A stretch of DNA of 60,926 nt, the filler included. It is 4 parts of 4 records of this genome, joined end to end, with 100 filler letters (N's around TTAATTAATTAA, not from the genome) between each part and the next. Parts side by side here need not be neighbours in the genome. Positions count along the whole stretch, not along the records: positions 56,342 to 60,926 come from SRR20825010_2198; 3 more parts are not named here. One strand, written 5' to 3'. The translations under genes and the position numbers were made by a program. The notes under the pieces were generated by a model. The model saw nothing but the letters and a program-made list of their open reading frames with translations. It ran no database searches and was not told where the DNA came from. Shown here piece by piece: positions 5,668 through 60,926 of this stretch (within the stretch, counting starts at the first letter, position 1; each line of letters opens with the position of its first letter).

Positions 5668-7271
5668 TCAGCATGGATGCGATGGAAACGGACTATGTCG
5701 TGGTCGGCGCAGGCTCCGCCGGCTGTGTCGTGGCGAGCCGCCTGAGCGAGAGCGGGGCAAAGGTCCTGCTGCTGGAGGCTGGGCCCGCGGACCACAATCC
5801 CCTGATCCATATTCCGGCTGGCGTGAAGAGCCTGCTCTATAACGCGAACGTCAACTGGAACTATGCGAGCGAGCCGGAAGAGAGCACGGCGGGACGGGCT
5901 ATTCACTGGCCGCGCGGACGCGTTCTCGGCGGCTCGCACTCGATCAACGGGATGCTCTATGTGCGCGGCAACCCGGCCGACTATGACGGCTGGGCGCAGC
6001 TCGGCTGCCGGGGCTGGAGCTTCAGCGACGTCTTGCCCCTGTTTCGCCGGTCCGAGCGCTACGACAAAGGCGAGGAGGGCATCCGGGGACGCAGCGGCCC
6101 GATGCCCGTCGAGGATTACCGGACCATTCTGCCACTGACCCACGCCTTCGTGCGCGCGGCCCAGGAGGCCGGTTTTACCCTGAACCCCGATTACAACGGC
6201 TCACGGCAGGACGGGGTCGCCTATTCGCAGATGACGCGGCGCGGGCGCTGGCGCGCCTCGACCGCACGCACCTTCCTGGCCGAAGCGCGCAAGCGCCCCA
6301 ATCTGCGGATCGAGACGGAGGCGCTGGTGCAAAAGCTGACCTTCGAAGGGCGCCGCTGCACCGGGCTGGTGTTTCGCCGCCATGGCGAGGATGTCCGCGT
6401 CCGCGCCACCCGCGAGGTGATCCTGTGCGGCGGAGCCGTCAATTCACCGCAAATCCTGCAGCTCTCGGGGATCGGCCCGGCCGGGCATGTCGCGGGCCTC
6501 GGACTGCCGGTGGTGCAGGACCTGCCCGGCGTGGGCGCCAACCTGTCCGATCACTACGTCACGCGCATCACGCACCGCGTGCGGGACGCGATCTCGCTGA
6601 ACGAGCTGTCGCGGGGCTGGCGGGTGCTGCGCGAGATCGGCCGCTTTGCGCTTTTCGGCAACGGCGCGCTGACCTTCGGCGTGACCAGCGCGATGGTGTT
6701 CTGCCACAGCCGCGAGGGCCTGGAGAGTCCGGACCTTCAGCTCCTGTTTACGCCGGCCAGCTACGATCCGGACAAGCCTCTGGCCCTGGAGCGCGCGCCT
6801 GGAATGGCGACGGTGATCTGTCCGACGCGCCCCTCCAGCCGCGGCACGGTGATGGCCGCCAGCCCGGATCCGTCGGCACCGCCGCGCATCAAGCCGAACT
6901 ATCTGTCGGATCGCGACGATCTGCGGGTGATGCTGTCCGGCATGGAGCATGTGCGCCGGATCTTCGCCGCGCCGTCCCTCGCGTGCCACAGCGCGTCGGA
7001 ACTCTGGCCAGGACCGGCTGCAGCGGACGAGGCCGCGCTCGCGCAATTCGCCCGGGAACGCGGCACCACGCTCTATCATCCGGTCGGCACCTGCAAGATG
7101 GGGATCGATCCTATGGCGGTCGTTGACCCTGAACTCAAAGTCCGGGGCGTCGAGGGGCTCAGGGTCGCCGACGCCTCGGTGATGCCCTATCTGACAACCG
7201 GCAACACCAACGCCCCGACCATCATGATCGCCGAGAAGGCGGCCGATCTGATCCGGGCGGAAAGCGCGTAA
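5664..7271 (+). CDS. GMC oxidoreductase (choline dehydrogenase-like)
   Basis: GAGSAG, RGRVLGGSHSING, YHPVGTCKMG, GNTNAPTIMIAEK. Confidence 0.92.
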   Translation: MISMDAMETDYVVVGAGSAGCVVASRLSESGAKVLLLEAGPADHNPLIHIPAGVKSLLYNANVNWNYASEPEESTAGRAIHWPRGRVLGGSHSINGMLYVRGNPADYDGWAQLGCRGWSFSDVLPLFRRSERYDKGEEGIRGRSGPMPVEDYRTILPLTHAFVRAAQEAGFTLNPDYNGSRQDGVAYSQMTRRGRWRASTARTFLAEARKRPNLRIETEALVQKLTFEGRRCTGLVFRRHGEDVRVRATREVILCGGAVNSPQILQLSGIGPAGHVAGLGLPVVQDLPGVGANLSDHYVTRITHRVRDAISLNELSRGWRVLREIGRFALFGNGALTFGVTSAMVFCHSREGLESPDLQLLFTPASYDPDKPLALERAPGMATVICPTRPSSRGTVMAASPDPSAPPRIKPNYLSDRDDLRVMLSGMEHVRRIFAAPSLACHSASELWPGPAAADEAALAQFARERGTTLYHPVGTCKMGIDPMAVVDPELKVRGVEGLRVADASVMPYLTTGNTNAPTIMIAEKAADLIRAESA

Positions 7272-9894: not shown

Positions 9895-10557
9895 TTAGTC
9901 TTCTCGGCGCAACGTAATCGATCCCGCAGTGTTAAGGCCTTTCCGCCATGATCTGTCAGTCCAGTAATGCCCCGAAAGCGCGGTCGGTGGCCCTTCCCCA
10001 CCCAAGCTGATTTCCAAGACAGCCGCACCTCGATGCACCCTCTCGTCGCCGTCTCCATGTTCAGGTGTTTGTTGCTCATAAATATATGAGATCTCGGCAA
10101 CATGCCGCTCTGGGTCCTTTTTCAAGCTGACAATCCGAGACGAAGATTTCCCGATATCAGAGACAAGCCGCACAGAAATCCGCAAGAAGCCTTGGTCAAT
10201 GCGAACTTTGACCGGGACAACGTGACTCCCTGAGCCATATTCTCCAATAGGGCCCGGTCGCTCTGCCTCCGGATTCCAGTTCGACCTAATTTCTCCATAC
10301 CAGTCACCATTAACATCGGGGAAGACTCGTTGATTCAAGCTGGGAAACAAGCACCAGAGCATTCGCCAACGCTTTGTGAGAAGGAGGGTTACGAAACTCA
10401 TCACCATGAAAGTTCCGCTGAAAGTGCGTAGAACCCCCACCACCGTCCAAGGCTCTGTTAAAACATGGCTATGGATGAGGATCACCAAGAGGATTGATGA
10501 AGCGCCCGACCACCCGAATATGGTCATCCATGATTTCAAGCCGAGGAGCTGCCACAT
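9895..10557 (-). CDS. cap15: CBASS Cap15-like effector (2 TM helices + beta-barrel, S-2TM-beta)
   Basis: Two N-terminal hydrophobic helices, then FPDVNGDWYG..SYIYE..HRGAAVL..LSGHYWTDR..TAGSITLRR; ATG at 10557 preferred to avoid overlap with the cyclase. Confidence 0.75.
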   Translation of the reverse strand: MWQLLGLKSWMTIFGWSGASSILLVILIHSHVLTEPWTVVGVLRTFSGTFMVMSFVTLLLTKRWRMLWCLFPSLNQRVFPDVNGDWYGEIRSNWNPEAERPGPIGEYGSGSHVVPVKVRIDQGFLRISVRLVSDIGKSSSRIVSLKKDPERHVAEISYIYEQQTPEHGDGDERVHRGAAVLEISLGGEGPPTALSGHYWTDRSWRKGLNTAGSITLRRED

Positions 10558-10566
10558 AACTACATC

Positions 10567-11907
10567 TTGAGGTTTACAGCTAACAAGATTCATGCATATA
10601 GTAATTCTCTCAACAATGGTACCGGAATTGCCGTGGCTTTCGCAACGTCCCATGACCTTGACACGAAGGTTGGAACTCCCCTTCTGAACCTGCATCCACT
10701 GTTCTTCGGGAACCGTCATCGTGGAGGTTTACTCTCTGCGCTTAACATCACCCCTAAACAAGATCAGGAACTGCGTCGTGCGCGGACGGAAATCCGGCAG
10801 GAGCTAAGAATAGCGGCAAGGTCCCCTGAAAGCTTTGGACTGGACCAATCTGAAGTGTTCAGAGGGTACGGAATCCTAGCCCGTCTGGACTTTAGCGAGA
10901 AAACTTTCCGACCCAGGTTCCTGACGCAGGGCAGCTACGTTTACAAGACGCTGAACAGCCCGTGTTGGGCGGCACAGGCAATTGATCTCGACGACGGTGT
11001 CTATTTTCCGATGAGCTTCCTTGATGTGGGGCAACCGGCACTTATGTCGAGCGCTCTTTTTAAGCTTGTCGAGAATGCCTTGGAGTCTTTGTGTCGTCGC
11101 AATAGTTGGACAATGACACGCAAAACGACGTGCGTTCGGATCCATCTTGACCCTGAAAGAACTGCGCACATTGATCTGCCGATTTATGCGATACCTGACC
11201 AAGAGTTCGAGCGCCTCGAAAAATCAGCTCAAACCGCCTTCGCTTCTGGCCACACAAATTTTAGAGAAGCGATGAATTATATTGGTCCAGAAATGAGGAT
11301 CGATCCCAATAGGGTAATGCTTGCACATCGTGAGGTCGGCTGGATTCCGTCTGATCCGCAAAAAATGAATGACTGGGTAAAGATCCAGATAGAGACTCAC
11401 GGAGAGAGTTTACGGCGGGCGTGGCGCTATCTTAAAGCGTGGCGAGACTTTCATTGGAATGACTCGAGCCTAGCATCAATCCACTTGATGGTCGCTGTGG
11501 CAAAAATTTTCGACGAACACAATGAGCAGTCGAACGACCGACCGCGCGATGATATTGACCTATATTTTTTAGCGACCCTGTTGCCGAATGTCCTGACATA
11601 CGCAGTCGAGAACCCAGTGGACAGAAGTCAACCATTCAGGTGCAGCGATCAGGATCATCTGATTGATCTAAAACAGCGCATGCATAGGCTTAGCGCGAAA
11701 TTATACAGCGCAGTCTATGAGACAGCACACAAGCAATTAGCTATCCAGACCATCGTAGATCAGTTTGGGGACAGAGTTCCTAACGACGAACTAATGGTAT
11801 CCAGCAATTTGGGTACACCAGCTGTCGTGTCGGATCGTGGACAAATACGGACAGCGATTGCGGCATCAGTTCCTATTGAAACTGTCAGAAAGACGCACGC
11901 CGGATAA
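10567..11907 (+). CDS. CD-NTase (cGAS/DncV-like nucleotidyltransferase); true start probably GTG ~10633 or CTG 10684
   Basis: PRFLTQGSYVYKTLN..IDLDDGVYFPMS, HIDLPIY, WIPSDP, RYLKAWRD; C-terminus ..KTHAG. Confidence 0.92.
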   Translation: MRFTANKIHAYSNSLNNGTGIAVAFATSHDLDTKVGTPLLNLHPLFFGNRHRGGLLSALNITPKQDQELRRARTEIRQELRIAARSPESFGLDQSEVFRGYGILARLDFSEKTFRPRFLTQGSYVYKTLNSPCWAAQAIDLDDGVYFPMSFLDVGQPALMSSALFKLVENALESLCRRNSWTMTRKTTCVRIHLDPERTAHIDLPIYAIPDQEFERLEKSAQTAFASGHTNFREAMNYIGPEMRIDPNRVMLAHREVGWIPSDPQKMNDWVKIQIETHGESLRRAWRYLKAWRDFHWNDSSLASIHLMVAVAKIFDEHNEQSNDRPRDDIDLYFLATLLPNVLTYAVENPVDRSQPFRCSDQDHLIDLKQRMHRLSAKLYSAVYETAHKQLAIQTIVDQFGDRVPNDELMVSSNLGTPAVVSDRGQIRTAIAASVPIETVRKTHAG

Positions 11908-11915
11908 AACGCGCT

Positions 11916-13613
11916 ATGATGATGCTGGCGGATAAGGAAACACTAGCAATTCGACATATCCACGCCACGTTGAAAGCGCGTGGCTACAAGCGTAAGACAG
12001 ACGAGACCGTTCATGCGTGGGTCGGAAGCGAGAAAATTCTAGGCAAAACCGTAGACCTTGCAATAATAGTAACTGACCCACTCTTTGCCGATCTTCCAAT
12101 AATCGTCCTAATAAACCCGACAACAGAGATCCGCGCTCATGTATTGAGCAGCGGCTCCATATGTTATGCTGCAGATGCCTCTCTTGTTCTTGACCCCGAT
12201 AATCCAGGTGGATCTGTCTTACGATGCATTGAACAAGCGAAAGAAACGTTAGAACTAGCAGATAATATTTCGTCAAACGCAGAGATTCGAGCCGAGTTTG
12301 GCGCTTATTGGGCTGGTCGAACAGTATTTATAGAGTTTGAATCTAAAAAAAATTCAGCCACTCACTATATTGTAGATTGTAATAATGGAAAAACTGTATC
12401 TCTGATATCTTCGGACATCTCTACAGCTCATTTCCTTGCAAGTCGTCATAAATCTGTGGTGCAGCAGTTAGGAAAAGTATCAATACTCCATATGGATCAA
12501 GACCTAGATGTCGGCGGAGTATCGTTCCCCCCGCAAAATTTACAGGAATTGACGGATTGGATCCATGCAGCTGCCCCAAACTACTTGAATACATTGCAGA
12601 ATCTATTGCTCCCAGATGCAGGACCAAAGGAAACGTATATTGTCGCTCGAAATATAACTCTAGGCGTCCTAGTAGAGTTACCTAATGATATCAAGCAAAG
12701 TAGAAAAAAAGGATTCCGTAATGACTTTTGGAAACGTGCAACTAAAAAAAGGCCGGGTGACTTCAAAATTCAACGTTATACGGGACTCCGAGTTGACGAG
12801 GAATACCGCTTCACACGAAATCTGGATGACTCTGATCAAGAACGTAGCCCGCCTCGATCGCTAGAAAATAAAAAAATTGCCTTGATAGGAATTGGGTCCA
12901 TCGGTGGTTATTTGGCTCAAGCATTGACACGCTCTGGAGCCGGAGCAGGAAAAAGCGGGGAGTTGGCATTATTCGACCCCGACGTACTTTTCCCCGCGAA
13001 TCTCGGACGTCATTTGCTATCTTTTGAAGACCTTGCACGCCCTAAAGCCGAGCAAGTCGCGAACCGGCTCTCTGTTGAGGCTCCAAGACTGAATGTAATT
13101 TCTCACGTAATAAATGCACTGACACGAATTGACAGCCTCCGGCATTTCGACCTGGTTATTGATGCGACAGGCGAAGAGCGTGTCAGCCTTGCCCTGAATT
13201 CGTACAAGCAGAATCGCCGAAGTTCGGACAAGCCGCTCCCGCCGATCCTTCATTGCTGGCTTATAGGTAACGGAGCATCATCCCAAACCTTTTTTAATGG
13301 CATGGATAGCAAGGCTTGCTTTCGTTGCTTAAGACCAGACTTGGCCAAGCAAGCGCGCTACTGGCCACTGAAAGACGGAGCGGAGCAAATCTTAAAACTG
13401 CCGCAAGACGGATGCGGAGGAGCGTTTGTCGCCTATTCTGTTTCTGCTCCCATGATCGCCGCAGGTCTGGCATTGGAAGCTGTTCTCGATTGGGCCAGAG
13501 GCTCACCGCACCCCGCCTTACGAACACTCAACATCGACCCGACGCGCACCCAGCCCAAGAAGCATGTTAGCCCTGAACGACATCCGAATTGCCCCGCATG
13601 TAAAGGGCTTTAG
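11916..13613 (+). CDS. cap2: CBASS Cap2-like E2-E1 (ThiF) fusion
   Basis: E2-like AHVLSSGSICY; E1 IGIGSIGG, FDPD..NLGRH, IDATG, CFRC/CPAC zinc pairs, GCGG; 8 nt downstream of the CD-NTase. Confidence 0.88.
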   Translation: MMMLADKETLAIRHIHATLKARGYKRKTDETVHAWVGSEKILGKTVDLAIIVTDPLFADLPIIVLINPTTEIRAHVLSSGSICYAADASLVLDPDNPGGSVLRCIEQAKETLELADNISSNAEIRAEFGAYWAGRTVFIEFESKKNSATHYIVDCNNGKTVSLISSDISTAHFLASRHKSVVQQLGKVSILHMDQDLDVGGVSFPPQNLQELTDWIHAAAPNYLNTLQNLLLPDAGPKETYIVARNITLGVLVELPNDIKQSRKKGFRNDFWKRATKKRPGDFKIQRYTGLRVDEEYRFTRNLDDSDQERSPPRSLENKKIALIGIGSIGGYLAQALTRSGAGAGKSGELALFDPDVLFPANLGRHLLSFEDLARPKAEQVANRLSVEAPRLNVISHVINALTRIDSLRHFDLVIDATGEERVSLALNSYKQNRRSSDKPLPPILHCWLIGNGASSQTFFNGMDSKACFRCLRPDLAKQARYWPLKDGAEQILKLPQDGCGGAFVAYSVSAPMIAAGLALEAVLDWARGSPHPALRTLNIDPTRTQPKKHVSPERHPNCPACKGL

Positions 13614-29813: not shown

Positions 29814-29913
29814 NNNNNNNNNNNNNNNNNNNNNNNNNNNNNNNNNNNNNNNNNNNNTTAATTAATTAANNNNNNNNNNNNNNNNNNNNNNNNNNNNNNN
29901 NNNNNNNNNNNNN
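29814..29913. other. Artificial contig linker
   Basis: N-run, TTAATTAATTAA (stops in all six frames), N-run. Confidence 0.98.
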
Positions 29914-34158: not shown

Positions 34159-34258
34159 NNNNNNNNNNNNNNNNNNNNNNNNNNNNNNNNNNNNNNNNNN
34201 NNTTAATTAATTAANNNNNNNNNNNNNNNNNNNNNNNNNNNNNNNNNNNNNNNNNNNN
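34159..34258. other. Artificial contig linker
   Basis: N-run with TTAATTAATTAA core. Confidence 0.98.
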
Positions 34259-56241: not shown

Positions 56242-56341
56242 NNNNNNNNNNNNNNNNNNNNNNNNNNNNNNNNNNNNNNNNNNNNTTAATTAATTAANNN
56301 NNNNNNNNNNNNNNNNNNNNNNNNNNNNNNNNNNNNNNNNN
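56242..56341. other. Artificial contig linker
   Basis: N-run with TTAATTAATTAA core. Confidence 0.98.
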
Positions 56342-56375
56342 AAGGGAGATGCTCTACCAACTGAGCTACCAAATC
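56342..56375 (-). tRNA. 5' half of a tRNA (probably Lys-TTT), truncated in the anticodon loop
   Basis: GATTTGG-TAGCTCAGTTGGTAGAGC-A-TCTCC-CTT on the minus strand. Confidence 0.75.
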
Positions 56376-57195: not shown

Positions 57196-57236
57196 ATCCT
57201 TGCAAATTTAAAGTGCAGTTTTAAATTTGCAAGGAT
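57196..57236. terminator. Bidirectional terminator-like hairpin
   Basis: ATCCTTGCAAATTTAAA-gtgcagt-TTTAAATTTGCAAGGAT perfect 17-bp stem between convergent genes. Confidence 0.8.
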
Positions 57237-57239
57237 CAA

Positions 57240-58457
57240 TCAACGATCCACTTCCCCCAAAACAATATCAATAGAGCCGATTACGGCCACCAAATCTGAT
57301 ATTAAACCTCCCTTTGAGAGTTCATTGATAATAGAGAGGTTCACAAAACTGGCACCTCGTGCTTTGCAACGGAATGGCACATCAGATCTTCCATCGGCAC
57401 GGAAGAAAAAGCCAGTTTCGCCCTTTGGGTTTTCGGCTCGGATGTAGAAATCTTGGGCTTTAGGTCTGATTTTCTTTGGTGCTAAGGCTCGCGGATCGAA
57501 ATCACGCGTTCTCTTGTGCTCGCCAGTGAGTTTTTCTAAGCATTGCTCAATAATCTTCACCGACTCGTAGCACTCTTGCACACGCACTGAGGTTCTGTCC
57601 CAACAATCCCCTAAGGTTCCAACTTCGCCCTTGCCTACTGGAATATCGAAGTCTATTTCTGGATAAACCGAATAGCCATCTACTTTTCGCAAATCATACT
57701 TCAAACCAGAACCACGCAGCATCGGGCCAGTGATACCATAGTTAATCGCTAAATCAACAGGCAATACGCCAACATTGGCAGTTCTGTCGATGAATATTTT
57801 ATTGTCGATGACCACCCTTTCTAGCTCCTTAATTTTGGGCTTTAAGTAGGCCGTAAACTCAAGGCATCTTTCTTCAAAGCCTACGGGTAAATCGTAAAAC
57901 AAACCACCCACCCAAATGTAATTGTAAAGCATTCTCGCACCAGAAGCCCATTCCAACAAACGAACAATATGTTCTCTGTCGCGGGTCATCCAGAAAAAGG
58001 CGGTAACGGCTCCAATGTCCATTCCGTAGGAACCCAGCGCAATAAAGTGAGAGGCCAATCGGTTCAGTTCCGCCACCAAAACCCGGATATATTCTACCCG
58101 CTTTGGAATAATTTTATCGATACCCAACATGCGCTCAACGCCCATAGCATAAGCGTGCTCGGTATTCATGGCAGCCAAATAATCCATTCGATCCACAAAA
58201 GGAATCACCTGATTATAAGGCAAATTTTCAGCATGTTTTTCGAAGCAGCGGTGTAAATAGCCCAAGTGTGGAACCACTTCAATGACCTCTTCGCCTTTGG
58301 TCAAAACCTCTAAACGAAGTACCCCGTGGGTAGAAGGGTGTTGCGGGCCAATATTGATAATCATCTCCTCTCTTTTCAAATCTTCATACTTGAATTTTTG
58401 AGGAGCCGACTTGCGCAAATTCTCCTTATCGAAGATATATTGTACCTGATTCGCCAC
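57240..58457 (-). CDS. nuoD: NADH-quinone oxidoreductase subunit D
   Basis: [38 protein letters not shown]. Confidence 0.95.
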
Positions 58458-58943
58458 TTAATATTCTACTTTAATTCCGCGATAGTATTCTTGTTCTTGG
58501 TAGTCTTTTCTGAGCGGGAAACCGTCCCAATCTGCTGGCATTAAAATCCTTCTCAAATCCGGATGATTATTGAAATGGATTCCGTACATATCGTACACTT
58601 CACGCTCTTGCCAATCGGCCGTTTTCCATAAACTACAAAGCGAATCGATGGCGAGTTTCTCTCTTGACAATTCCACCTTTACCATCAAATGATGATTGAA
58701 AGGAATAGAGTATAGGTTATAAATCATCTCCATTGTATTCGCTTCTGGGCCGTTGTCTAGGCCCGTAATACAGGAAAGAGAATCGATATAGAGTTGGTCA
58801 TCTTTCTGAAGGGAATCCATTACCTCCACCAAATTTTCGGCATTAATCATAATGGCCTTTGGCGAAGCATTTTCGTCTGTAGAAAGAATGATTTCTTCTC
58901 CTAAACTGGTCTTAATATGGTTTACAATTTGCTCGAAATTCAT
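58458..58943 (-). CDS. nuoC: NADH-quinone oxidoreductase subunit C
   Basis: ADWQEREVYDMYGIHFNNHPDLRRIL..GFPLRKDY. Confidence 0.95.
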   Translation of the reverse strand: MNFEQIVNHIKTSLGEEIILSTDENASPKAIMINAENLVEVMDSLQKDDQLYIDSLSCITGLDNGPEANTMEMIYNLYSIPFNHHLMVKVELSREKLAIDSLCSLWKTADWQEREVYDMYGIHFNNHPDLRRILMPADWDGFPLRKDYQEQEYYRGIKVEY

Positions 58944-59533
58944 TACTCCTTGGGTTTAAGAAAATGAGTTTTAAGAAAGCTATAAAGAGGTTCAAGATAC
59001 TCGGCATCAAGATTCCATAAAGAAGCTCTCTTGAAAGTATGAGATTCTTTTTTTCCTTTTTCATCTTTGAACTCAAAAGCATTAGAATAAATATAAACCC
59101 TGCTTTTATCATTAAAATCAGCTAGATCATTAGTTCTCTGTCTCTCAACACAATCTCCATATGAATTGATACATCCAAATATCCACTTTCTTTCTTCACT
59201 GATTATTTGTAACAGGAGCGTTTCCAAATTACCAGAAAGCTCATTATTAGGAAAGTAAAATTGGCCGGCCAACTCTAAATTAAACTTCATGGCTTGTTTT
59301 TCAATTCTTTTCTTAGCTCCCGTCAAGTCTTTGTCTGAATCAAAAATGACTAAGACATTTTCGCCTCGTTCATTAGCAATTTCAATAGCACTTTTTTGTG
59401 GGCTTAGGTTATTTGACTGCGTCAGTATAAAATCCTCTCGATCAATATTAATTGGTGAAAATCTATATTCAATAAAGTCTTTTAGAAACTTAAAGTCGGT
59501 TTCTCCTTCTACGACAATCTTAAATCTGTTCAT
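58943..59533 (-). CDS. TOPRIM-fold protein (DUF3226-like)
   Basis: IVVEGETD, VIFDSD, GNLETLL; overlaps the ATPase stop and the nuoC start. Confidence 0.72.
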   Translation of the reverse strand: MNRFKIVVEGETDFKFLKDFIEYRFSPINIDREDFILTQSNNLSPQKSAIEIANERGENVLVIFDSDKDLTGAKKRIEKQAMKFNLELAGQFYFPNNELSGNLETLLLQIISEERKWIFGCINSYGDCVERQRTNDLADFNDKSRVYIYSNAFEFKDEKGKKESHTFKRASLWNLDAEYLEPLYSFLKTHFLKPKE

Positions 59534-60597
59534 CGTATTTCATTTCCGTATTCGACAGCGTGTTCAAGCTCTTCGAAAGAAGAAGTAACAGCCTTTACAT
59601 CCTTAGATTTATAGTTTTCTACCAAAGTAATTGTTCTCGCTTCTTTTTGAAGGTGCTCCATTTCTTTTTCTTCCAACACCTCTTTGAAATAGCGAATGCA
59701 CTCTTGGTTATGAGTAGTTACAAAAAGTTGAACTTCGTTTTCTTCCGCAGCGCTTAGAATCACTCTCCAAAAGTCTTTCATTCTCGAATAATGAATCCCT
59801 GTATCAATTTCATCTACCATAAGACGCTGCCCCTTAAAAATGATTAAATACATCAGGAGTCTAAAGAGCTTAGTCGCTCCATCACCGAAATTCGCTAATG
59901 GTACTACAGAGTTTTGTCCTTTTAGGGCTACAACTAAAACGGAATAACTAGAAATGACCGTATCGAACTCAATATCCTCAATATCAGGTATAAGAATTGC
60001 CAGCAGATTCAAGAGCCTTCTTTTAGCCACCCTATCACGTATAATGTGTTTAGAATACATATCTGACAAATCCTTTCCGTATGTTAATGAAAATGGTATT
60101 AATGGACAAACATAGTCGTTAGGAAGACTATCTGGTTTATTGCTTTTCAAAACAGCATTGCCGTTATAAAAAGAGTCATCATCCCCATTGATTTTTTTGA
60201 CTATAAAATTACCTTCTTTAGTATATTCAAAGTAACTCCCGTCCATGAAATCATTGACCTTATGATTTCTATCCTTTCTCGTTTTTTGATTGATATAATT
60301 AATGCGTAACATTAACTGAGATGGACGGCTTTCTAAAAGCGAATGCTTATTGACGAAAAAACTCAAATGCCCTTCTTCATACCATCCACCAATGTTCTTG
60401 AAATTTAATGCTGCAAGTAGGTTCTTAGAAAATTCATCGGAATCCTCGCTATACAGCAACGCCTCTAACAATGAGGTTTTCCCAACATTATTATCTCCAA
60501 TTATTAGGTTAAACTCACCGAGATTCTTTAAGTGAAGTTTTTCAAATCTTTTGAAGTTTTCAACCCGAAACTCTAGCAAATGATCTTTTTTTGACAT
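59530..60597 (-). CDS. ABC-type (AAA_15/AAA_21-like) ATPase
   Basis: VENFKRF, Walker A GDNNVGKTS, FGDG signature, Walker B LMVDEIDTGIH, VTTH. Confidence 0.88.
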   Translation of the reverse strand: MSKKDHLLEFRVENFKRFEKLHLKNLGEFNLIIGDNNVGKTSLLEALLYSEDSDEFSKNLLAALNFKNIGGWYEEGHLSFFVNKHSLLESRPSQLMLRINYINQKTRKDRNHKVNDFMDGSYFEYTKEGNFIVKKINGDDDSFYNGNAVLKSNKPDSLPNDYVCPLIPFSLTYGKDLSDMYSKHIIRDRVAKRRLLNLLAILIPDIEDIEFDTVISSYSVLVVALKGQNSVVPLANFGDGATKLFRLLMYLIIFKGQRLMVDEIDTGIHYSRMKDFWRVILSAAEENEVQLFVTTHNQECIRYFKEVLEEKEMEHLQKEARTITLVENYKSKDVKAVTSSFEELEHAVEYGNEIR

Positions 60598-60627
60598 TTC
60601 TGTAAGATTTTAAGAAAGGTAAAAAAT

Positions 60628-60926
60628 TTAAACTGCTTTTGCAGCTAACAACTTTTCAATGGCTTTTGGCGCCACAATGGTTTCTTGTCTTATTTTTTCT
60701 TGAAGCTTCAGCAAACCACCTATTAAAGCTTCTGGCCTTGGTGGGCAGCCCGGCACATAAACGTCCACAGGAATTATTCTATCCACACCTTTTACCACGT
60801 GATAGCCATGTTCCCAATACGGGCCTCCACAATTGGAACATGAGCCCATTGACACTACATAACGTGGCTCGGCCATTTGCTCATAAAGTCTTCTTACACG
60901 GTCGGCCATTTTGAAGGTTACGGTAC
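60628..60926 (-). CDS. nuoB: NADH-quinone oxidoreductase subunit B, 5'-truncated by window edge
   Basis: [26 protein letters not shown]. Confidence 0.95.

Follow-up and report, generated by a model that had tools for sequence, protein, structure and literature searches.

A putative AbiL-like ATPase-nuclease gene pair at a strain-variable site inside the nuo operon of Roseivirga-like bacteria

Why should two genes of defence-like type lie between nuoB and nuoC, in the middle of an operon for respiratory complex I? The question is raised by the last contig (positions 56342-60926, 4585 bp) of the stretch of DNA analysed here (the window, 60,926 nt), on whose minus strand nuoB, a 30-nt spacer, a gene for a 355-aa ATP-binding cassette (ABC) ATPase, a gene for a 196-aa DUF3226 protein, nuoC and nuoD follow one another (Table 1). 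We consider it probable that the two inserted genes form an AbiL-like anti-phage module, made up of two separate proteins, an ABC ATPase of the SMC/Rad50 type and a small nuclease of the TOPRIM type, and that the module is a strain-variable insertion at the nuoB-nuoC junction. The family of ABC ATPases paired with TOPRIM nucleases is known already and widespread; what is unusual is the address inside the nuo operon.

An original prediction, made from the letters of the window, had placed two genes between nuoB and nuoC, with a 4-nt overlap between them and the sequence TAATG at the start of nuoC, and this proved correct to the base. The coding strand reads ATGA where the ATPase and DUF3226 genes overlap (59530-59533), and the DUF3226 stop and the nuoC ATG have one base in common (58941-58945). 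The flanking genes are genuine nuoB, nuoC and nuoD, ordered and on one strand, as judged from Pfam and NCBIfam matches and from synteny with 42 related loci. The inserted genes are no chance pair of open reading frames (ORFs), the first product matching Pfam AAA_15 (E = 6.7e-18) and AAA_21 (5.5e-17) and the second DUF3226 (2e-13).

To place the insertion among relatives, species-representative genomes were scanned with NuoC, and the best 80 of 521 relatives were kept (L001-L080). The junction was measured from the nuoB stop to the nuoC start, which was extrapolated where the match began inside NuoC. The main survey set comprised the 44 best loci (L001-L044), 42 of which, belonging to Bacteroidota, have colinear nuoB and nuoC. 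The junction is tight (-17 to +10 nt) in 37 of the 42 and shows an exact ATGA overlap in 23, including five Roseivirga genomes (L001-L005) that are the closest relatives of the contig (NuoC 90-93% and NuoD 97-98% identical). When the site is empty, as here, the stop codon of nuoB overlaps the start of nuoC. A homologous pair occupies one of the 42 junctions, that of L006, as a 1627-nt insert.

The survey of such junctions for variable cargo that had been proposed with the original prediction thus turned up the pair and also a second cargo: in three of the 42 loci, all Cytophagaceae/Cytophagales metagenome-assembled genomes (MAGs), the junction measures ~547 nt and holds an orphan ORF of 178-180 aa that is conserved and has a hydrophobic N-terminus (L027, 5456-5998; L030, 4118-4660; L033, 1209-1745), for which neither a Pfam match nor an Atlas lead was found. 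In L042 (Pseudarcicella hirudinis), nuoB and nuoC, which overlap in most relatives, lie 218 nt of non-coding sequence apart (5782-6001). In two further MAGs (L041, 1-2950; L044, 1-6490), nuoCD has no nuoAB upstream and a universal-stress-protein-like gene precedes nuoC, which marks the nuoB-nuoC boundary as a natural breakpoint within the group. Among L045-L080, which cover other phyla and two further Bacteroidota MAGs, the largest gap is at most 211 nt, and one gene is missing in three loci.

In a tree of NuoC and NuoD (41 rows; L028, L037, L042 and L043 were excluded for want of a full NuoD match), the window is nested among the empty L001-L005 (98/99 support), L006 is sister to the empty L007 (100/98), and the window group, the L006 group and the empty L008 fall in one clade (100/99). 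The original prediction had guessed at Cytophagales, which was right, and had described the pair as locked into the operon, which was not: the junction is empty in the five closest relatives and in L007, the sister of L006.

The second carrier, L006, is a Cytophagales MAG represented by an 84.6-kb contig from another assembly. Its gene order is nuoA, nuoB, ATPase (342 aa), DUF3226 (191 aa), nuoC and nuoD, followed by the same convergent gene as in the window and by tRNA-Lys. Compared to the window, NuoB is 95%, NuoC 76% and NuoD 88% identical, the ATPase 61% (63.6% over aligned columns) and the DUF3226 protein 39-40%; despite this divergence, both ORFs are intact with their catalytic motifs in both genomes. 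The junctions are as in the window, with ATGA at the overlap within the pair and the last stop overlapping the nuoC ATG, and the two NuoB proteins have a common type of tail (..LLAKKAV in L006, ..LLAAKAV in the window). Up to the insert edge, the flanks of the window and of L006 each resemble their own empty relatives.

The NuoB tail offers a way to recognize further carriers. At the filled site of the window it reads ..KLLAAKAV, and in empty-site relatives ..KLLEKKAKVA, with the stop overlapping the nuoC ATG. Among the 15 listed proteins of the NuoB cluster (49 members, 40 read), three have the filled-type tail and a length of 173 aa (P0319, P0320 and P0311). P0319 is, apart from its tail, the NuoB of Roseivirga seohaensis SW-152 (L004), whose junction is empty; its only contig measures 4,139,292 bp, as does the contig that carries ATPase P0042 and DUF3226 protein P0001 of R. 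seohaensis, two proteins with consecutive WP accessions. P0320 lies on a contig of 3482 bp, the length also found for the DUF3226 protein P0002, and for P0311, the NuoB of L006, the longest contig measures 477,885 bp, which is also the figure for the ATPase P0044. These coincidences point to three more nuo-embedded carriers, including a second R. seohaensis strain, and so to presence and absence of the pair within one named species.

Over 98 residues the window NuoB and P0319 are the same (100% identity), yet the window ATPase and DUF3226 protein are each only 62.8% identical to P0042 and P0001, respectively. This suggests that near-identical hosts carry very different alleles of one module at one address, the address in the P0319 host being a probable one. 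The window, L006 and P0040-P0052 group together, with 100/100 support, as a clade of 15 rows in an ATPase tree that has 62. Because alleles ~40% apart occur in hosts with identical NuoB, the locus is a strain-variable one carrying diverged alleles of one module, and not locked-in. A further member of the NuoB cluster, P0323 (226,360-bp contig), has an intermediate tail (..LLAEKAKAV), of empty-type length with a filled-type ending, suggesting that the filled-type tail comes from native nuoB and not from the cassette.

What do the two genes encode? The best PADLOC match of the ATPase is AbiLi (PDLC02336, 4.8e-48), covering residues 9-355 on positions 4-340 of the 340-position profile, followed by five PDC-M38A profiles (best 1.1e-43) and AriA (6.3e-21); profiles from other ATPase-based systems match more weakly. 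In 72 aligned sequences, the invariant residues include G34, G39 and K40 (Walker A), D262-E263 (Walker B) and H296 (H-loop). An AlphaFold (AF2) model with a predicted local distance difference test score (pLDDT) of 91.9 matches PtuA, SMC, Rad50, GajA and Thermus OLD (TsOLD) in Foldseek at E 4e-11 to 1e-9 and probability 1.00. As modelled, the ATPase has an ABC head of the SMC/Rad50/PtuA/GajA type, with every feature by which the SMC/Rad50 type was judged. Comparison of its profile with PDB sequences gave marginal matches only, to PtuA and Rad50 (~6e-4), and the PHROGs matches are to generic P-loop families only (best 2.3e-11). The family is widespread in Bacteroidota, with 442 relatives of the ATPase there, and the closest database protein is 64% identical. 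Only remote relatives of the ATPase turned up on plasmids and phages: a tblastn search of 72,556 plasmids matched 150 records, all below 60% identity (22-30% among the 15 listed). One distant relative lies on the large extrachromosomal element of Methanocaldococcus jannaschii (NC_001732.1, 8176-9126; 23.7% identity over 95% of the query, E 4e-10).

The small protein matches Pfam DUF3226 (PF11536) over residues 5-191, with 51.1 bits against a cut-off of 27. Its PADLOC matches are AbiLii (PDLC02338, 1.2e-12), a second AbiLii profile (0.0048) and three PDC-M38B profiles (best 1.4e-8). A HMMER search with it found 1413 cluster representatives at E ≤ 0.001, 234 of them at E ≤ 1e-30, and the closest database protein is 62% identical. 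In 141 aligned family members, G10, D13, D65, P95 and G101 are invariant, and E9, D67 and E104 are conserved in at least 90%. Scanned singly, all 141 match DUF3226, 39 match OLD-like_TOPRIM (E ≤ 0.01, best 5.6e-7), 13 match DUF4435, the AriB domain, and five match OLD-like_TOPRIM_1. In the model (pLDDT 94.9), strands and helices alternate in the core, among them strands at 4-8 and 59-65; a Glu follows strand 1 (E9) and a DxD follows strand 3 (D65, D67), which are the TOPRIM motif positions. No PHROGs family was matched, and a length-restricted search for longer, fused relatives scored none of 581 candidates, which is weak evidence.

The original prediction had read the pair as an ABC ATPase with a TOPRIM-type partner and as defence-like, and the PADLOC matches of both proteins agree with it. 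It had also named a check of the TOPRIM fold, on which the outcome is divided: the motifs and the family-level Pfam cross-matches speak for the fold, and Foldseek returned no significant match. The small protein is therefore assigned to TOPRIM tentatively, from its motifs and from profile cross-matches within its family and not from fold search, in which the evidence is weak.

PADLOC defines AbiL by an AbiLi-type ATPase gene and an adjacent, co-oriented AbiLii-type gene, and both are present here. As in lactococcal AbiL, the ABC ATPase gene comes first and the gene for the small TOPRIM/OLD-like protein second. Unlike lactococcal AbiL, which is plasmid-borne, the window pair is chromosomal, inside an operon, and belongs to Bacteroidota. 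In the parts available, a 2026 review sets AbiL beside the PARIS (phage anti-restriction-induced) system as an ABC ATPase with a TOPRIM/OLD nuclease, describes its mechanism as still open and gives the phenotype of lactococcal AbiL against phage in its Table 1 (PMC13064643); another paper, likewise in part, adds AbiL and MADS3-4 to a PARIS-like list of ABC ATPase and TOPRIM systems (PMC11464382). Both window proteins also match PDC-M38. The original prediction had called the pair uncharacterised, which holds for DUF3226 as far as papers were found but not for the pair, since it falls under AbiL and under the PADLOC candidate PDC-M38.

PARIS serves as the mechanistic model. Its ATPase and TOPRIM protein are likewise encoded by separate genes; a phage protein is sensed by AriA, AriB is released and host tRNA is cleaved, and AriB by itself is mildly toxic only, PARIS being a true defence (PMC11464382, in the part available). 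The AriA profile matches the window ATPase far more weakly than AbiLi or PDC-M38A do, the window ATPase has 355 aa compared to 55 kDa for AriA (same source), and the small protein has no DUF4435 match (E ≤ 0.01) and no AriB profile match (E ≤ 1). Because DUF4435 and AriB matches are lacking, and with AriA not the best match of the ATPase, identity with PARIS was rejected.

The OLD nucleases (P2 Old, class 1; GajA, class 2; retron, class 3) combine an ABC ATPase with TOPRIM in the same logic, and the ATPase model matches GajA and Thermus OLD at ~1e-9. Classes 1-3 are single polypeptides, with PARIS as the split form (PMC10568477, available in part). The window pair, and likewise that of L006, consists of two ORFs with their own start and stop, and identity with OLD classes 1-3 was rejected because ATPase and TOPRIM protein are encoded as two genes.

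With respect to address, the comparison is with core defence hotspots, such as cDHS1/2 of P. aeruginosa and the integration hotspots of E. coli, which lie between conserved genes according to the available parts of two papers (PMC10250203, PMC10121019). Like these, the nuoB-nuoC junction is a fixed chromosomal address between conserved genes, filled in some strains and empty in others; close relatives have nothing there, while diverged cargo fills it elsewhere. As described in the same parts of those papers, core hotspots measure kilobases to hundreds of kilobases and lie between transcription units, those of E. coli being filled mostly by mobile elements. The window locus, by contrast, is one 1.66-kb two-gene module within an operon, joined to it by overlapping stop and start codons.

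How would the pair be expressed, and how might it act? The original prediction held that the gene layout implies co-expression and translational coupling, which stands as a statement about layout. No terminator-like site was found on the coding strand inside 58943-60597. A strong terminator-like hairpin follows nuoD and a convergent gene lies beyond it, so the transcription unit probably comprises nuoA-D only. We propose that the pair is transcribed on the nuo mRNA and hence made constitutively, and that translation of nuoC, coupled to nuoB when the site is empty, would be re-coupled to the upstream DUF3226 gene, whereby nuoCD expression would survive the insertion. By analogy with PARIS and the OLD nucleases, the ATPase would hold or control the nuclease and sense a phage cue; the nuclease, once freed or activated, would cut nucleic acid (tRNA or DNA), and infected cell and phage would be stopped. 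The locus would then act as a small defence hotspot, with ~40%-diverged alleles at one site and close relatives without the insert.

Several observations weigh against this reading of the pair and its expression. On the side of the nuclease, the OLD-like_TOPRIM match of the small protein itself (0.008, 17.1 bits) is below the Pfam cut-off of 23.2, and the AbiLii match is limited to residues 55-190. Foldseek searches of the DUF3226 model against PDB and BFVD gave nothing at E ≤ 0.001; the top PDB match is a response-regulator receiver domain (5.6e-3), and TOPRIM/OLD entries (2fcj, RNase M5, the OLD C-terminal regions 6njw and 6nk8, and phage primases) recur at E 0.03-0.15 only. In an hhalign comparison with P2 Old, the Glu and the DxD align with Old 394-455, yet at a probability of 7% and E 0.0049, and the DUF3226 profile gave only chance matches to ROR-alpha (E ~0.2) among PDB sequences. 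On the side of the system, no Lactococcus plasmid is among the 150 records matched by the ATPase, which leaves the PADLOC profile as the one link to the lactococcal prototype, and only two phage records were matched by the ATPase search. PDC-M38 is a candidate system and gives a label without a function, and a literature search found no paper that mentions DUF3226 or PDC-M38. The anti-phage role itself is thus a presumption from sequence and from analogy.

The remaining counterpoints concern expression and the number of carriers. Co-transcription of the pair with nuo is presumed from the gene arrangement, and nuoA and the promoter lie beyond the window edge. In the window, the nuoB tail and the spacer (60598-60660) can fold into a hairpin of -12.1 kcal/mol with a U-run behind it (z -1.85, with 7 of 200 shuffles folding equally well). 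The corresponding part of L006 has no such hairpin (-3.9 kcal/mol, z +1.04), and a conserved terminator between nuoB and the ATPase gene was rejected, the hairpin being present in the window only. A Bacteroidetes-type promoter pattern had no match in the window, and a sigma-70 promoter scan is uninformative for this phylum. Finally, three of the five nuo-embedded cases are read from NuoB tails and equal contig sizes.

How did the pair arrive at this site? The insert holds two genes only in both the window and L006, with no integrase or transposase, and no target-site duplication or terminal inverted repeats common to the two were found. A mobile integrative element was rejected because there is no integrase, transposase or significant terminal repeat. 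The spacer contains, at 60608-60625, one copy of an ~18-nt imperfect direct repeat (16/18 identical, 89%), the other copy of which lies in the DUF3226 3' end (Table 1). This 3' end is the best match of the spacer in the whole contig, with a score reached by 4 of 2000 shuffles. The L006 spacer matches the 3' end of the window DUF3226 gene at 17/19 positions (1 of 2000 shuffles), and the 3' end of the L006 DUF3226 gene has no match to the repeat. Cassette turnover may have left the repeat as a scar, or it may be a leader sequence that is shared, or a product of chance in AT-rich DNA.

One old insertion is favoured because the left junction is conserved and the cassettes form a single clade; it would have been followed by diversification, loss and exchange through the nuo flanks. 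Repeated targeted insertion may be the alternative. A bolder version is possible, and we offer it tentatively, as something we would sooner doubt than assert: that the nuoB-nuoC junction is a dedicated intra-operon immune locus of Roseivirga, founded by one ancestral insertion of an AbiL-like pair, maintained since then as a polymorphism of presence and absence and of several alleles, and with alleles swapped via the nuo flanks. The pair, tied to the operon by its stop/start overlaps, could then not be silenced without losing NuoC and NuoD, and the conserved spacer, with its likeness to a DUF3226 3' end, would be a scar of turnover.

Other explanations of the locus have to be weighed against an AbiL-like defence module. 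The pair might be a selfish passenger of the toxin-antitoxin kind, in which a toxic nuclease is neutralised by the ATPase and the two ride on transcription that cannot be switched off, giving little or no protection against phage. Two tightly overlapping genes fit this, the site in an essential operon would guarantee expression, and PARIS, in which the ATPase keeps a toxic nuclease in check, offers a precedent (PMC13064643 and PMC11464382, in the parts available). However, AriB alone is only mildly toxic, as stated above, and presence and absence in near-identical hosts mean that the cassette was lost or replaced without visible harm; an allele divergence of ~40% alongside identical NuoB is also more like diversifying immune loci than pure addiction. 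We regard such a passenger as unlikely, though the least unlikely of these explanations. It appears more doubtful still that the pair is a neutral passenger or one in decay, the remnant of a single old insertion at a merely tolerant junction, without current function. The junction does tolerate the orphan ORF (L027, L030, L033), the 218-nt gap (L042) and a split nuoCD (L041, L044), and the GC content at third codon positions is lower in the pair (0.27-0.34) than in the nuo genes (0.37-0.47). Decay is, however, hard to reconcile with ORFs that are intact in both the window and L006, with catalytic motifs all kept despite 39-60% divergence, and with stop/start overlaps retained in both genomes.

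Recruitment of the pair to respiration, whether tied to energy state or helping complex I, has in its favour only the address and the translational coupling to nuoC. The same operon runs without the pair in the closest relatives, the family is widespread in Bacteroidota (the 442 ATPase relatives and 1413 DUF3226 cluster representatives given above), the pair sits at a single one of the 42 surveyed nuoB-nuoC junctions, and Pfam revealed no complex I-related domain, so that we hold this idea to be very improbable. An assembly artefact, a chimeric join that placed foreign genes between nuoB and nuoC, might be suspected from the shortness of the contig and from a window that mixes contigs of very different GC. 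A misassembly at either junction had been named with the original prediction as something to check; it is unlikely because the same order and junction sequences recur on the L006 contig, which comes from another assembly. Moreover, at least three further proteins in the database have the filled-type NuoB tail, and the contig of one of these measures 4.14 Mb. Stop and start codons overlap at both junctions, which are seamless, leaving an artefact scarcely credible. An AbiL-like module at a strain-variable site thus remains the reading that we prefer.

The features of the locus are collected in Table 1.

Table 1. Features on the last contig of the window, with positions counted along the whole window
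Feature	Position	Strand	Remarks
nuoB, 3' part	60628-60926	minus	98 codons, truncated by window end; Pfam Oxidored_q6 6.4e-21; NCBIfam NuoB 2.7e-52
Spacer, 30 nt	60598-60627	minus	From nuoB stop to ATPase ATG; 77% identity with L006 spacer
ABC ATPase, 355 aa	59530-60597	minus	AbiLi-like / PDC-M38A-like; presumed sensor or regulator
DUF3226 protein, 196 aa	58943-59533	minus	TOPRIM-like, AbiLii-like; presumed nuclease effector
Second repeat copy	58969-58986	minus	DUF3226 3' end, encodes ..LYSFLKT..; 1639 nt from spacer copy
nuoC	58458-58943	minus	Pfam Complex1_30kDa 5.5e-43; 90-93% identical to Roseivirga NuoC
nuoD	57240-58457	minus	Last gene of nuoABCD unit; Pfam Complex1_49kDa 4.2e-85; NCBIfam NuoD 3.3e-125
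Terminator-like hairpin, 17-pair stem	57196-57236	minus	Directly after nuoD; likely end of transcription unit

The window consists of four contigs joined by three N44-TTAATTAATTAA-N44 linkers (29814-29913, 34159-34258 and 56242-56341). Genes of the last contig have a GC content of 33-45%, and the other three contigs ~62%; the last contig is Roseivirga-like and not related to the rest of the window, which comes either from a mixed bin or from contigs put together artificially. Its first 34 positions (56342-56375) lie inside a tRNA gene, matching Rfam tRNA positions 1-33 of 71 below threshold, with nothing reported by ARAGORN. Related loci have tRNA-Lys(UUU) at the syntenic place (L001, 8569-8642; L006, 8544-8617), and because of this the assembly probably broke at the tRNA gene. 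Elsewhere in the window, within a dip in GC (0.50 compared to ~0.63), a set resembling a type II cyclic-oligonucleotide-based anti-phage signalling system (CBASS) occupies 9895-13613. Its Cap15 cyclic-dinucleotide receptor effector is encoded on the minus strand at 9895-10719 and its DncV-like CD-NTase on the plus strand at 10567-11907; a Cap2-like E1/E2 protein with ThiF and Prok-E2_B domains follows at 11916-13613.

Complex I clusters of Paracoccus and Rhodobacter contain unassigned reading frames, which tempers any surprise at foreign genes in a nuo operon. A paper on these extra ORFs was not found in our search, and the part of PMC4859585 that was available makes no mention of them. Nor did the literature search find a paper that joins anti-phage systems with nuo operons. 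The usual setting described for defence genes is an island between transcription units or a mobile element, as in the available parts of PMC10121019 and PMC10250203.

The module itself adds little; the address is the point of interest. A defence-type pair sits in a core respiratory operon, is absent from the nearest relatives and occurs as very different alleles in others. If this holds in a wider sample, essential operons can be expression platforms for immune genes, and surveys confined to islands would overlook such loci. The junction would also offer a small, clean natural system in which to follow how a defence locus is gained and lost and how its alleles turn over, with no visible mobile element.

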